Sequence record: NZ_KX832927.1
From: a plasmid
Strand: one strand, 5' to 3'
DNA: 64,000 nt
Shown here: positions 39,001-60,000 of the stretch, in pieces
How the letters are laid out: each line of letters starts with the position of its first letter
Position numbering within the stretch: the first letter of the stretch is position 1
Program-made: the position numbers

Positions 39001-42000
39001 CTCGACGTGCGCGGCCTGGTCGTCTCGGCATCGTCGGATGCGGCGATGCTCGAGCGAGGCGAAAAAAAACCGCCTCGGGGTGTCCGAGGCGGCAAGTCTG
39101 CATGCGGTTCAGGGAGGAAGAAACCGCGCCGGCGATCAGGGAGGAAAACCGCGCGGCCTGATGTGCAGCTCGGCCACTTTAGCCGGATTTTTCGACTTAT
39201 CCGATGCGAGCGGCCCGCCGTGGGCGCTGCTCGATCTGCTGTTGCTTTTTCTCGACGTGCTTCTGCTCCTGGTGCTGCTGCTCGTCGCGCGGCACTGTTG
39301 CAAAGTTAGCGATGAGGCAGCCTTTTGTCTTATTCAAAGGCCTTACATTTCAAAAACTCTGCTTACCAGGCGCATTTCGCCCAGGGGATCACCATAATAA
39401 AATGCTGAGGCCTGGCCTTTGCGTAGTGCACGCATCACCTCAATACCTTTGATGGTGGCGTAAGCCGTCTTCATGGATTTAAATCCCAGCGTGGCGCCGA
39501 TTATCCGTTTCAGTTTGCCATGATCGCATTCAATCACGTTGTTCCGGTACTTAATCTGTCGGTGTTCAACGTCAGACGGGCACCGGCCTTCGCGTTTGAG
39601 CAGAGCAAGCGCGCGACCATAGGCGGGCGCTTTATCCGTGTTGATGAATCGCGGGATCTGCCACTTCTTCACGTTGTTGAGGATTTTACCCAGAAACCGG
39701 TATGCAGCTTTGCTGTTACGACGGGAGGAGAGATAAAAATCGACAGTGCGGCCCCGGCTGTCGACGGCCCGGTACAGATACGCCCAGCGGCCATTGACCT
39801 TCACGTAGGTTTCATCCATGTGCCACGGGCAAAGATCGGAAGGGTTACGCCAGTACCAGCGCAGCCGTTTTTCCATTTCAGGCGCATAACGCTGAACCCA
39901 GCGGTAAATCGTGGAGTGATCGACATTCACTCCGCGTTCAGCCAGCATCTCCTGCAGCTCACGGTAACTGATGCCGTATTTGCAGTACCAGCGTACGGCC
40001 CACAGAATGATGTCACGCTGAAAATGCCGGCCTTTGAATGGGTTCATGTGCAGCTCCATCAGCAAAAGGGGATGATAAGTTTATCACCACCGACTATTTG
40101 CAACAGTGCCACGCGGGGCTTACCGTGGCAGGAAGAAATCCCTGTCGTCTGAGCGTATTGCCGAACTGCGCCAACGTGTCGAGGCTGGCGAGCAAAAGAC
40201 CAAGCTTGCTCGTGAATTCGGAATCAGTCGCGAAACCCTGTATCAATACTTGAGAACGGATCAGTAAATATGCCACGTCGTTCCATCCTGTCCGCCGCCG
40301 AGCGGGAAAGCCTGCTGGCGTTGCCGGACTCCAAGGACGACCTGATCCGACATTACACATTCAACGATACCGACCTCTCGATCATCCGACAGCGGCGCGG
40401 GCCAGCCAATCGGCTGGGCTTCGCGGTGCAGCTCTGTTACCTGCGCTTTCCCGGCGTCATCCTGGGCGTCGATGAACTACCGTTCCCGCCCTTGTTGAAG
40501 CTGGTCGCCGACCAGCTCAAGGTCGGCGTCGAAAGCTGGAACGAGTACGGCCAGCGGGAGCAGACCCGGCGCGAGCACCTGAGCGAGCTGCAAACCGTGT
40601 TCGGTTTCCGGCCCTTCACCATGAGCCATTACCGGCAGGCCGTCCAGATGCTGACCGAGCTGGCGATGCAAACCGACAAAGGCATCGTGCTGGCCAGCGC
40701 CTTGATCGGGCACCTGCGGCGGCAGTCGGTCATTCTGCCCGCCCTCAACGCCGTCGAGCGGGCGAGTGCCGAGGCGATCACCCGTGCTAACCGGCGCATC
40801 TACGACGCCTTGGCCGAACCACTGGCGGACGCGCATCGCCGCCGCCTCGACGATCTGCTCAAGCGCCGGGACAACGGCAAGACGACCTGGTTGGCTTGGT
40901 TGCGCCAGTCTCCGGCCAAGCCAAATTCGCGGCATATGCTGGAACACATCGAACGCCTCAAGGCATGGCAGGCACTCGATCTGCCTACCGGCATCGAGCG
41001 GCTGGTTCACCAGAACCGCCTGCTCAAGATTGCCCGCGAGGGCGGCCAGATGACACCCGCCGACCTGGCCAAATTCGAGCCGCAACGGCGCTACGCCACT
41101 CTCGTGGCGCTGGCCACCGAGGGCATGGCCACCGTCACCGACGAAATCATCGACCTGCACGACCGCATCCTGGGTAAGCTGTTTAACGCTGCCAAGAATA
41201 AGCATCAGCAGCAGTTCCAGGCGTCAGGCAAGGCCATCAACGCCAAGGTACGTCTGTACGGGCGCATCGGTCAGGCGCTGATCGACGCCAAGCAATCAGG
41301 CCGCGATGCGTTTGCCGCCATCGAGGCCGTCATGTCCTGGGATTCCTTTGCCGAGAGCGTCACCGAGGCGCAGAAGCTCGCGCAACCCGATGACTTCGAT
41401 TTCCTGCATCGCATCGGCGAGAGCTACGCCACCCTGCGCCGCTATGCACCGGAATTCCTTGCCGTGCTCAAGCTGCGGGCCGCGCCCGCCGCCAAAAACG
41501 TGCTTGATGCCATTGAGGTGCTGCGCGGCATGAACACCGACAACGCCCGCAAGCTGCCAGCCGATGCACCGACCGGCTTCATCAAGCCGCGCTGGCAGAA
41601 ACTGGTGATGACCGACGCCGGCATCGACCGGCGCTACTACGAACTGTGCGCGCTGTCCGAGTTGAAGAACTCCCTGCGCTCGGGCGACATCTGGGTGCAG
41701 GGTTCACGCCAGTTCAAGGACTTCGAGGACTACCTGGTACCGCCCGAGAAGTTCACCAGCCTCAAGCAGTCCAGCGAATTGCCGCTGGCCGTGGCCACCG
41801 ACTGCGAACAATATCTGCATGAGCGGCTGACGCTGCTGGAAGCACAACTTGCCACCGTCAACCGCATGGCGGCAGCCAACGACCTGCCGGATGCCATCAT
41901 CACCGAGTCGGGCTTGAAGATCACGCCGCTGGATGCGGCGGTGCCCGACACCGCGCAGGCGCTGATAGACCAGACAGCCATGGTCCTGCCGCACGTCAAG

Positions 42001-57000: not shown

Positions 57001-60000
57001 AAGTGATCTGCACCAATCTCGACTATGCTCAATACTCGTGTGCACCAAAGCGAGGTGAGCATGGCGACGGACACCCCACGGATTCCAGAACAAGGCGTGG
57101 CCACTCTGCCTGATGAGGCTTGGGAGCGTGCGCGCCGTCGTGCGGAGATCATCAGTCCGTTGGCGCAGTCGGAGACGGTCGGGCACGAAGCGGCCGATAT
57201 GGCGGCTCAGGCGCTGGGCTTGTCTCGGCGCCAGGTATACGTTCTGATCCGGCGTGCCCGGCAAGGCAGCGGCCTCGTGACGGATCTGGTGCCCGGCCAG
57301 TCCGGTGGAGGTAAAGGTAAGGGGCGCTTGCCGGAACCGGTCGAGCGCGTCATCCACGAGCTACTGCAAAAGCGGTTCCTGACCAAGCAGAAGCGCAGCC
57401 TAGCGGCCTTTCACCGCGAAGTCACTCAGGTGTGCAAGGCTCAAAAACTGCGAGTGCCGGCGCGCAATACCGTGGCCTTACGGATCGCTAGCCTTGACCC
57501 GCGCAAGGTCATCCGCCGGCGGGAAGGCCAGGATGCCGCTCGTGACCTACAAGGTGTGGGCGGCGAGCCTCCTGCCGTGACCGCGCCGCTGGAGCAGGTG
57601 CAGATAGACCATACGGTCATCGACCTGATCGTGGTCGATGACCGCGACCGGCAACCTATTGGCCGCCCGTACCTGACCCTCGCCATCGACGTGTTCACCC
57701 GCTGCGTGCTCGGCATGGTCGTCACGCTGGAAGCGCCGTCTGCCGTTTCGGTTGGCCTGTGCCTCGTGCATGTCGCCTGCGACAAGCGCCCTTGGCTGGA
57801 AGGACTGAACGTGGAAATGGATTGGCAGATGAGCGGCAAGCCCTTGCTGCTCTACCTAGACAACGCGGCCGAGTTCAAGAGCGAGGCCCTGCGCCGGGGT
57901 TGCGAGCAGCATGGCATCCGGCTGGACTATCGCCCGCTGGGACAGCCGCACTATGGCGGCATCGTGGAACGGATCATCGGCACGGCGATGCAGATGATTC
58001 ACGACGAACTGCCGGGAACGACCTTCTCCAACCCTGACCAGCGCGGCGACTACGATTCCGAAAACAAGGCCGCCCTGACGCTGCGCGAGCTAGAGCGCTG
58101 GCTCACATTGGCGGTCGGCACCTACCACGGTTCGGTGCACAACGGCCTGCTCCAACCGCCGGCCGCGCGCTGGGCCGAGGCCGTGGCGCGTGTCGGCGTA
58201 ATGCTCTGCCAGTGTTACAACCAATTAACCAATTCTGATTAGAAAAACTCATCGAGCATCAAATGAAACTGCAATTTATTCATATCAGGATTATCAATAC
58301 CATATTTTTGAAAAAGCCGTTTCTGTAATGAAGGAGAAAACTCACCGAGGCAGTTCCATAGGATGGCAAGATCCTGGTATCGGTCTGCGATTCCGACTCG
58401 TCCAACATCAATACAACCTATTAATTTCCCCTCGTCAAAAATAAGGTTATCAAGTGAGAAATCACCATGAGTGACGACTGAATCCGGTGAGAATGGCAAA
58501 AGCTTATGCATTTCTTTCCAGACTTGTTCAACAGGCCAGCCATTACGCTCGTCATCAAAATCACTCGCATCAACCAAACCGTTATTCATTCGTGATTGCG
58601 CCTGAGCGAGACGAAATACGCGATCGCTGTTAAAAGGACAATTACAAACAGGAATCGAATGCAACCGGCGCAGGAACACTGCCAGCGCATCAACAATATT
58701 TTCACCTGAATCAGGATATTCTTCTAATACCTGGAATGCTGTTTTCCCGGGGATCGCAGTGGTGAGTAACCATGCATCATCAGGAGTACGGATAAAATGC
58801 TTGATGGTCGGAAGAGGCATAAATTCCGTCAGCCAGTTTAGTCTGACCATCTCATCTGTAACATCATTGGCAACGCTACCTTTGCCATGTTTCAGAAACA
58901 ACTCTGGCGCATCGGGCTTCCCATACAATCGATAGATTGTCGCACCTGATTGCCCGACATTATCGCGAGCCCATTTATACCCATATAAATCAGCATCCAT
59001 GTTGGAATTTAATCGCGGCCTCGAGCAAGACGTTTCCCGTTGAATATGGCTCATAACACCCCTTGTATTACTGTTTATGTAAGCAGACAGTTTTATTGTT
59101 CATGATGATATATTTTTATCTTGTGCAATGTAACATCAGAGGGCACTGTTGCAAATAGTCGGTGGTGATAAACTTATCATCCCCTTTTGCTGATGGAGCT
59201 GCACATGAACCCATTCAAAGGCCGGCATTTTCAGCGTGACATCATTCTGTGGGCCGTACGCTGGTACTGCAAATACGGCATCAGTTACCGTGAGCTGCAG
59301 GAGATGCTGGCTGAACGCGGAGTGAATGTCGATCACTCCACGATTTACCGCTGGGTTCAGCGTTATGCGCCTGAAATGGAAAAACGGCTGCGCTGGTACT
59401 GGCGTAACCCTTCCGATCTTTGCCCGTGGCACATGGATGAAACCTACGTGAAGGTCAATGGCCGCTGGGCGTATCTGTACCGGGCCGTCGACAGCCGGGG
59501 CCGCACTGTCGATTTTTATCTCTCCTCCCGTCGTAACAGCAAAGCTGCATACCGGTTTCTGGGTAAAATCCTCAACAACGTGAAGAAGTGGCAGATCCCG
59601 CGATTCATCAACACGGATAAAGCGCCCGCCTATGGTCGCGCGCTTGCTCTGCTCAAACGCGAAGGCCGGTGCCCGTCTGACGTTGAACACCGACAGATTA
59701 AGTACCGGAACAACGTGATTGAATGCGATCATGGCAAACTGAAACGGATAATCGGCGCCACGCTGGGATTTAAATCCATGAAGACGGCTTACGCCACCAT
59801 CAAAGGTATTGAGGTGATGCGTGCACTACGCAAAGGCCAGGCCTCAGCATTTTATTATGGTGATCCCCTGGGCGAAATGCGCCTGGTAAGCAGAGTTTTT
59901 GAAATGTAAGGCCTTTGAATAAGACAAAAGGCTGCCTCATCGCTAACTTTGCAACAGTGCCCCGAAAACGGCTGGAAGAAGAGCAAGAGAAGTAATACGC

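Follow-up and report, generated by a model that had tools for sequence, protein, structure and literature searches.

Between two termini of a Tn21-family mercury-resistance transposon, the stretch of plasmid DNA analysed here (record NZ_KX832927.1; 64,000 bp, hereafter the window) carries a blaNDM-1 carbapenem-resistance module that the transposon seems to surround inside out, which raises the question of how a single element could come to face its own target from both sides. The arrangement itself appears to be already known from a Providencia rettgeri plasmid published in 2017, and only the target duplication and the ring reading presented here appear to be new. That plasmid, p16Pre36-NDM (KX832927) from Bogota, was described by Marquez-Ortiz et al. 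2017 (PMC5554438) and re-annotated by Dong et al. 2019 (PMC6737455), and in the available portions of these papers its structure is referred to as an 'odd rearrangement' or as 'complex recombination events'. Searched by term, the 2017 paper yielded nothing on target sites, cointegrates or tandem forms (PMC5554438), and the available portions of the 2019 paper make no mention of an AATAG duplication, an exact 9,012-bp period or the equivalence of the IS26 copies named A and C in Table 1 (PMC6737455).

Intact Tn21-type inverted repeats (IRs) occur twice in the window, as IRtnp and IRmer, against a chance expectation of 0, and the two are complementary at 35 of 38 positions. Their ends were calibrated on the Tn21 of pAsa4, which is itself flanked by a 5-bp TACCA duplication. 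The IRtnp (CTTAGCGTGCTTTATTTTCCGTTTTCTGAGACGACCCC) is the reverse complement of the Tn21 IRtnp and its GGGG terminus at 43269 faces right, while the terminus of IRmer (GGGGGCACCTCAGAAAACGGAAAATAAAGCACGCTAAG) faces left, in agreement with the original prediction of a right-end and a left-end orientation. The 38-bp IRs, together with a transposase gene beside IRtnp (TnpA, NF033527 score of 1328 bits), are those of a Tn21-subgroup insertion of the Tn3 family. As also predicted, the same pentanucleotide, AATAG, abuts both termini, and the native trpF/tat junction contains one copy only. Dropping one AATAG rejoins trpF and tat, the resulting 50-bp context being found exactly in pPM22-NDM_109k (pPM22), in pIsolateG_A and twice in pPROV081-1. 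The expected loss of the tat stop codon was confirmed by the minus-strand translation, which runs to NDAY and then reads through into the IR where TGA stood. For two breakpoints arising independently in a 9,012-bp ring, the probability of an overlap of exactly 5 bp is about 1e-4. These sequence features support the view that the Tn21 ends and AATAG are the footprint of one Tn21-type insertion between trpF and tat in a circularly permuted target.

Table 1. Positions of the transposon pieces, the Tn125 unit and the IS26 copies in the window.
Feature	Position	Strand	Remarks
IS26 A	17876-18695	+	Left junction with pPrY2001-like backbone; right flank CGCCGATG
Tn21 middle piece: tniA (from pAsa4 position 7519), tniB-delta, IS1353/IS1326, 3'-CS, cassettes, intI1, tnpM	18696-29250	+	
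tnpR'-tnpA', Tn21-family module (Tn6346-like), about 90% identical	within 29251-39290	+	Joined at res
GIsul2 remnant (sul2, ISCR2/ISVsa3, resG)	after tnpR'-tnpA', within 29251-39290		
IS26 B	39291-40110	-	Inverted relative to A and C; truncates Tn21 tnpR, res removed
tnpR of Tn21, last 157 bp	40111-40267	+	
tnpA of Tn21, intact, 988 aa	40270-43236	+	Identical to the pAsa4 copy
tat/dsbD-like gene of Tn125, 364-aa fusion	43205-44299	-	Stop codon lost; ORF extends 21 codons into IRtnp
IRtnp of Tn21	43232-43269	-	Terminus abuts Tn125 unit
AATAG, left copy of 5-bp target duplication	43270-43274	.	Adjoins IRtnp
cutA (-), groES (+), groEL (+) of Tn125	44304-46813		
ISCR21/27 transposase ORF	47002-48531	+	Annotated CDS in pPROV081-1 equates to 47038-48531
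pac remnant	after ISCR21/27 ORF, up to about 49264		
ISAba125, single copy	49265-50352	+	Ends accurate to about 2 bp
blaNDM-1	50445-51257	+	
bleMBL	51261-51626	+	
trpF	51631-52269	+	
AATAG, right copy of 5-bp target duplication	52282-52286	.	Adjoins IRmer
IRmer of Tn21	52287-52324	+	Terminus at 52287 abuts Tn125 unit
merR (-), merTPCADE, urf2, IRt, 5' part of tniA	52320-58200	+	
aph(3')-Ia segment of Tn4352	58201-59141	-	
IS26 C	59142-59961	+	Equates to right-hand IS26 of Tn4352

Of the 9,017 bp enclosed by the IRs, 5 bp are the duplication and the other 9,012 bp are one period of the Tn125 unit; positions 43270-52286 align without gaps to the tandem Tn125 array of pPROV081-1 (period 9,012 bp), from which they differ by a single mismatch. 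The predicted single Tn21-family insertion across a circularly permuted target is thus borne out by the duplication and by a target of exactly one unit. ISAba125 links the pac remnant directly to blaNDM-1, like in tandem Tn125 arrays. A composite Tn125 would have two ISAba125 copies bracketing blaNDM-1 to ISCR21, whereas the window has one, and it contains no internal repeat of the unit, of which a tandem array has at least two head to tail. What the window has corresponds to a single period of the arrays seen in pPROV081-1 and p6409-202.186kb; a tandem array, one of the two structures originally proposed, does not describe the present state.

The flanking arms tell a similar story of single copies. 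The left arm, bounded by IS26 B, consists of the end of tnpR and the intact tnpA and equals pAsa4 coordinates 17077-20235, while the right arm (merRTPCADE, urf2, IRt and truncated tniA; 52287-58200) equals positions 1501-7414 of the pAsa4 Tn21, both with 0 mismatches. All that the arms share is the inverted 38-bp IRs, with no overlap and no directly repeated homology; judged by their sequences, they are complementary pieces of a single Tn21, not two copies. The middle piece is present once, beside IS26 A, and matches Tn21 at 100% as far as the res region, at about 29200-29300. Beyond it lies the Tn6346-like module, which is that of the available annotation of Dong 2019 (PMC6737455) and whose IR is broken by IS5075; positions 29388-40110 are 100% identical to a block of a Citrobacter plasmid. 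There is one hybrid res, near 29200-29400, and none in either arm. Neither the two direct res sites nor, in the comparison of the arms with pAsa4, the two complete directly repeated transposon copies of a cointegrate were found, so that an unresolved cointegrate, the other structure originally proposed, does not fit the present state because the arms are non-overlapping parts of one Tn21. The loss of res and most of tnpR from the left arm, to IS26 B, had been correctly recognised, but not its supposed effect of blocking resolution, as the right arm lacks res as well and there is no res pair. Amplification by homologous recombination between the arms has to be abandoned too, since only the inverted IRs are shared and the bounding IS26 B and C are inverted. 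The content of the right arm (mer-urf2-IRt-tniA) was rightly called but not its extension to 59141, which belongs to the aph(3')-Ia segment. The Tn21 interiors point away from each other in the window and would be contiguous only around the plasmid, through IS26 C and IS26 A.

The IS26 copies suggest where the transposon may have been opened. The 8 bp at the right of IS26 A (CGCCGATG) are the classical IS26/Tn4352 target in tniA of Tn21, and the junction of aphA1 with IS26 C is the canonical Tn4352 junction, from which it follows that A and C are two copies of the same IS26. The right arm meets the aph(3')-Ia segment at a GCGTA microhomology, where 1,022 bp have been deleted: 112 bp of tniA, the left IS26 and 90 bp of the segment itself. 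IS26 A and IS26 C are identical direct repeats 41,266 bp apart, and the fact that they carry the two halves of the Tn4352-in-tniA junction suggests that a 41,266-bp ring was opened at IS26 on joining the backbone. The backbone/IS26 A junction is common to pTAFA, where the cargo differs, which points to a pre-existing backbone IS26 as the entry point. Such an entry would explain why no 8-bp target duplication lies outside IS26 A and C (CGCTGGAC versus CCGAAAAC), a sign of the replicative route only; a conservative or homologous IS26 route is expected to leave none. No IS26 target duplications that could date any step survive in the window. Positions 40111-59141 are the exact interval between the inverted copies B and C, and a simple IS26-mediated inversion of this segment was rejected, since inverting a whole segment leaves the order inside it as it was and the IS26 copies lack flanking 8-bp pairs in reverse complement. 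With direct identical IS26 at both ends, the block from A to C has the form of an IS26 pseudo-compound transposon or translocatable unit. Only IS26 A and IS26 C could excise, move or amplify this 41-kb block, and TnpA is unable to mobilise the NDM unit, since the IR termini are turned towards that unit. The present arrangement is stable and single copy.

Altogether, we favour, with a probability of about 0.6, a history in which a single Tn21::Tn4352 insertion into the Tn125 module, a 9,012-bp ring and an IS26 join to the pPrY2001-like backbone succeeded each other. A Tn21-type transposon already carrying Tn4352 (IS26-aphA1-IS26) in tniA inserted once between trpF and tat, a step shown by the AATAG duplication. 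Its target would have been, or have become, a closed ring of one Tn125 unit, through recombination of two Tn125 ISAba125 copies or of adjacent units in a tandem array; such arrays are present in sibling plasmids. A ring made up of the Tn125 unit and the Tn21 derivative, 41,266 bp in its present form, would have resulted and may then have joined a pPrY2001-like plasmid via the right-hand IS26 of Tn4352, by a conservative Tnp26 reaction or by homologous recombination with an IS26 already in the backbone. Because this join would have used the Tn4352 IS26, the ring would have been opened inside the transposon and not at the transposon/target junctions, giving a linear map in which the NDM unit is intact and permuted, both IRs point away from it and the rest of Tn21 comes after IS26 A, 41 kb further left. 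This history calls for two or more additional events, since IS26 B is inverted and 29251-39290 is foreign. The resistance region continues past the right-hand limit of the window.

A trapped replicative cointegrate offers a different route, in which a plasmid-borne Tn21 derivative would have transposed into a free, non-replicating 9,012-bp Tn125 ring to give transposon-ring-transposon, the outer parts being lost later by IS26-mediated deletion or by excision and reintegration between two equivalent IS26 copies. One copy of the 5-bp duplication per junction is exactly what it predicts, and the segment from IS26 A to IS26 C would be the central part of such a structure. Rings and arrays of the unit are common (the pac remnant-ISAba125-blaNDM junction is present in 101 PLSDB records), and in pPM22 the ring was taken up by IS26, likewise a replicative element, which left a duplication on either side. 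We nevertheless consider this route unlikely: a second copy of any Tn21 part is found neither in the window nor in the four-segment description of p16Pre36-NDM, as available (PMC6737455), quick resolution would be expected with the hybrid res and an apparently complete tnpR' still present, and two more deletion events are required than in the preferred model. Improbable as well is a head-to-tail doubling, via ISAba125 or unit homology, of a Tn125 carrying the Tn21 insertion, from which IS26 events would have stripped the outside and kept only the central transposon-right-part, unit and transposon-left-part. In its favour, arrays repeating every 9,012 bp are known from this plasmid family and from the same country, and tandem blaNDM-1 amplification is widely reported, but today there are one unit and one copy of each Tn21 part, several extra deletions would be needed, and the Illumina assembly gives a single IS26-bounded contig of 19,090 bp with no branch at the IR junctions. 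The length of this contig is that of the 19,031-bp IS26-bounded segment plus about 30 bp of IS26 per end, and the 14,218 bp of it that were compared match the window exactly. Cointegrate and tandem duplication are both possible historical intermediates, which sequence alone has no power to separate from insertion plus ring excision.

The region is rich in repeats (four IS26 copies and two Tn21-family tnp modules), where an assembly chimera, or two unrelated breakpoints mimicking a target duplication, might be suspected. This explanation is effectively refuted: the junctions lie in unique sequence and not at repeats, an exact rejoining by chance has the low probability given above, and across the tat/IRtnp junction independent Illumina contigs from two runs, SRR4191396 and SRR4191391, show no difference from the window, the former matching across trpF/IRmer as well. 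For p16Pre36-NDM, the 2017 paper reports confirmation by PacBio mapping, a MiSeq contig and PCR (PMC5554438), which excludes a chimera if the window is that plasmid. The chimera that the original prediction had named as its possible undoing is not borne out.

Both IR junctions (IRtnp/tat and trpF/IRmer) were absent from PLSDB, complete E. coli genomes and GTDB representatives, and IRtnp/tat, the sole one scanned there, from JGI metagenome contigs; the tniA/aphA1 deletion junction, a private marker, was absent from PLSDB. The junction-specific tat fusion protein was found in four Logan contigs only, and the full-coverage matches to the IS26 B/tnpR junction, among those listed, were all two-piece. 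Nor did any record in these four collections show what would be the ancestor, a Tn21 inserted in the usual way into a linear Tn125.

The preferred history of one Tn21 insertion, a 9,012-bp Tn125 ring and an IS26 join offers a simple account of a blaNDM-1 context for which two papers had given no explanation. It reveals no new mechanism and is of use for annotation and for tracking the spread of NDM, where the mobile unit to watch is the 41-kb IS26 A-C block rather than the Tn21 ends. Other plasmids carry this ring too, with differing points of permutation: pPM22, pIsolateG_A and the 101 PLSDB records mentioned above. Should the locus instead be the fossil of a Tn3-family transposon that captured a free, non-replicating resistance-gene ring by replicative transposition and was locked in by IS26 deletions, which we doubt, then this case and its IS26 counterpart in pPM22 would together mean that the Tn125 unit repeatedly enters new plasmids as a ring captured by replicative elements.

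Among known systems, p16Pre36-NDM resembles the window, by the published descriptions as available, in its Tn125 remnant with one ISAba125 and with the tat-dct-groES-groEL-ISCR21-pac remnant upstream of blaNDM-1, in the position of this remnant between two Tn21 IRs on a pPrY2001-like backbone, and in a Tn21 split into an IRL-tnpA-tnpR remnant, tnpM, In2 parts and mer, with Tn6346 and GIsul2 remnants and IS26 at both ends. pPM22 (NZ_CP137216) belongs to the same plasmid family and carries the 9,012-bp unit (5 mismatches), likewise permuted and bracketed by the ends of one element and its target duplication. Unlike in the window, its bracket is not a split Tn21 but two complete direct copies of IS26 with the 8-bp GAAAAAAG, 9,020 bp apart (the 9,012-bp ring plus the 8-bp duplication), and the ring was opened in ISAba125. 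pPROV081-1 (NZ_CP096343) and p6409-202.186kb (NZ_CP010373), a Colombian IncC plasmid with the same Tn125 array, share the identical unit, the pac remnant-ISAba125-blaNDM junction and the 9,012-bp period, but have several units and no Tn21 insertion, whereas the window has one unit. The Tn21::Tn4352 of the E. coli HB-Coli0 plasmid NZ_CP020934 matches the window in its aphA1 segment and in the site of IS26 within tniA, and its mer and tnp arms are 100% identical, but it is a contiguous transposon with inward-facing IRs from an ordinary insertion. Finally, replicative cointegrates of the Tn3 family also have one copy of the 5-bp duplication per transposon/target junction and the target between transposon ends, but with two complete direct copies and two res sites, where the window has one split copy.

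Only two intact Tn21-type inverted repeats were found in the window, where none is expected by chance: IRtnp and IRmer, which are complementary at 35 of 38 positions and whose ends were calibrated on the Tn21 copy of pAsa4, itself bracketed by a 5-bp TACCA duplication. Both lay where the original prediction had placed them, with the transposon interiors pointing away from the 9-kb blaNDM-1 segment, and the predicted AATAG was present at each terminus. The tat/dsbD-like ORF (tat) lacks its TGA and reads ...NDAY followed by 21 further codons into the IR. When one AATAG was removed, the native context was recovered and the 50-bp rejoined context was found exactly in three other plasmids, bearing out the proposed rejoining of trpF and tat and the return of the tat stop codon. 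The sequence shows that a Tn21-type transposon inserted once, at an AATAG lying between trpF and tat, into a single Tn125 unit that is circularly permuted.

Coordinates of the main features in the window
Feature	Position	Strand	Remarks
IRtnp of Tn21, 38 bp	43232-43269		terminus at 43269; sequence reading and repeat search
IRmer of Tn21, 38 bp	52287-52324		terminus at 52287; sequence reading and repeat search
AATAG, one per IR terminus	43270-43274 and 52282-52286		sequence reading
Tn21, right arm (IRmer side)	52287-58200		no overlap with the other pieces
Tn21, third piece	18696 to ~29250		no overlap with the other pieces
Tn21, left arm (IRtnp side)	40111-43269		no overlap with the other pieces
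IS26 A	17876-18695	plus	identical to B and C
IS26 B	39291-40110	minus	inverted relative to C
IS26 C	59142-59961	plus	direct repeat of A
ISAba125, single copy	~49265-50352		direct link of pac remnant and blaNDM-1, as seen in arrays or rings
aac(6')-Ian ORF	62190-62807

The tandem Tn125 array of pPROV081-1 (L006, 3828-12844) aligned over the whole segment between the repeats (43270-52286; 9,017 bp), with no gap and only one mismatch, at 43491. The period of this array is 9,012 bp, which was also found in the Colombian IncC plasmid p6409-202.186kb, and the segment therefore corresponds to exactly one Tn125 unit plus the 5-bp duplication. A length of 9,012 bp is what remains of Tn125 (10,099 bp) once one ISAba125 (1,087 bp) is subtracted. 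Tandem units are also a feature of the earlier Colombian IncC NDM lineage of p6234-178kb. The pac remnant-ISAba125-blaNDM-1 junction was present in 101 PLSDB records. Position 43491 lies inside tat and carries a private T, C being found in all Tn125 copies compared; the T also appeared in Logan contigs.

Both Tn21 arms matched pAsa4 Tn21 with 0 mismatches. The left arm encodes an intact TnpA (988 aa) and, as anticipated, has lost most of tnpR to IS26, only the last 157 bp remaining beside IS26 B. The right flank of IS26 A starts exactly at pAsa4 Tn21 position 7519 with CGCCGATG, the classical IS26/Tn4352 target in tniA; these 8 bp have also been reported for pHFK418-NDM (PMC6737455). Rightwards, tniB, IS1353, IS1326, the 3'-CS, cassettes, intI1 and tnpM are 100% identical to Tn21 up to the res region, beyond which come a tnpR'-tnpA' module ~90% identical to Tn21, with IS5075 in its IR, a GIsul2 remnant and IS26 B. 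Inside the res region (29200-29300), Tn21 identity falls abruptly from 100% to ~70% and is then ~90%; this is a res-site hybrid of Tn21 (mer-In2-tnpM) and a Tn6346-like tnpR-tnpA module. Since the pieces match pAsa4 without overlap, Tn21 is present once, in three parts.

The region under study (40111-59141) is exactly the interval between the inverted copies IS26 B and C; a fourth copy in the window, IS26 D, is a variant ~88% identical to IS26. Next to the right arm lies the Tn4352 segment with aph(3')-Ia (58201-59141). Tn4352 has lost its left-hand IS26 here: relative to canonical Tn21::Tn4352, 1,022 bp are deleted at 58192-58200, where GCGTA forms a microhomology, and with them went 112 bp of tniA, this IS26 in full and 90 bp of sequence upstream of aphA1. 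The resulting tniA/aphA1 junction, not found in PLSDB, is a lineage marker. The aphA1-IS26 C and IS26 A-tniA boundaries are two halves of one canonical junction. The distance from IS26 A to IS26 C is 41,266 bp across the resistance region, the rest of the plasmid also being bounded by these two direct copies, and no 8-bp duplication was found outside the pair.

We infer that a ring arose from a Tn125 unit that carried the transposon, either because the two ISAba125 copies of Tn125 recombined or because neighbouring units of an array did; IS26 x IS26 excision from a cointegrate or duplicated unit would be an alternative source of the same ring. The ring would have entered the plasmid at an IS26 that the backbone already carried, using the right-hand IS26 of Tn4352, which would account for A and C being direct repeats, for the canonical sequences on their inner sides and for the absence of an 8-bp duplication. 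Extra events have to be assumed for IS26 B with its tnpR truncation, for the hybrid at res and for the deletion of 1,022 bp. The same DNA would be left by a Tn21 cointegrate trapped with a free ring, or by tandem duplication of Tn125::Tn21, if IS26 trimmed it later; we consider both unlikely. Each of these routes takes more steps than entry of a ring at the backbone IS26, would have had to escape being resolved, although a hybrid res and an apparently complete tnpR' are still there, and has no second copy left in its support.

Of the original prediction, the single Tn21-family insertion across a circularly permuted target held, but a cointegrate or tandem array as the present state did not, Tn21 being present once and without a second copy. 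The supposed block of resolvase-mediated resolution also falls, because no res pair is present to resolve. Amplification by recombination between the arms was not upheld either: they share only the inverted IRs, and IS26 B and C are inverted, so recombination there would at most flip the segment. TnpA cannot mobilise the NDM unit because the IR termini face it. The only part that can be excised, moved or amplified is the 41-kb IS26 A-C block, as had likewise been suggested by the authors of the 2017 paper (PMC5554438).

The backbone (1-17875) and IS26 A, matched over 1-18699, were 100% identical to pPrY2001-like pTAFA (NZ_CP126336), including the backbone/IS26 junction at 17876. This plasmid comes from a Chinese Proteus vulgaris and carries cfr. 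The cargo of pTAFA is entirely different, and the common junction suggests that IS26 offers a fixed point of entry into the pPrY2001-like backbone. The junction-specific 364-aa tat fusion protein was carried by only four Logan contigs, and the two retrieved (SRR4191396, SRR4191391) were base-for-base the same as the window. One of these two (19,090 bp) has the length of the 19,031-bp IS26-bounded segment plus ~30 bp of IS26 per end. An assembly artefact was ruled out by independent assemblies and published PCR. The arrangement had been described in a 244-kb P. rettgeri plasmid from Bogota, p16Pre36-NDM (KX832927), whose authors confirmed it with PCR, with mapped PacBio reads and with one MiSeq contig that spans it (PMC5554438). 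The same four Tn21 segments, together with Tn6346 and GIsul2 remnants, are put down to 'complex recombination events' in the available part of Dong et al. (PMC6737455), which mentions neither the AATAG duplication nor a ring; when the 2017 paper was searched by term, neither a target site nor a cointegrate or tandem form was mentioned. The structure itself is thus not new, having been published, and only its reading as a target duplication and a ring is added here.

Between IS26 C and an IS1006/IS1008-like element lies a 1.2-kb stretch (59962-61182) for which the top PLSDB megablast hits listed include no match. It holds small ORFs, one of them weakly RelE/ParE-like (E 2.5e-4), so they may represent a toxin-antitoxin pair. 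A 62-bp unit is perfectly duplicated in tandem at 62095-62218, directly upstream of the aac(6')-Ian ORF, whose 5' end the duplication overlaps.

Another permuted Tn125 unit was observed in pIsolateG_A (CP135470, 22931-33205), with a window-equivalent start at 49003 and end at 48981, so that it was opened in the pac remnant; its ISAba125 is interrupted by an ISAs1-family element. In pPM22-NDM_109k (NZ_CP137216, 14181-24840), for which the published account gives only an ISAba125 truncated by IS26, a directly oriented pair of IS26 copies brackets the same 9,012-bp unit (5 mismatches). This unit was opened inside ISAba125 (window 49717-49724) and carries the 8-bp duplication GAAAAAAG at both ends of a 9,020-bp interval, being an exact analogue of the ring in the window.
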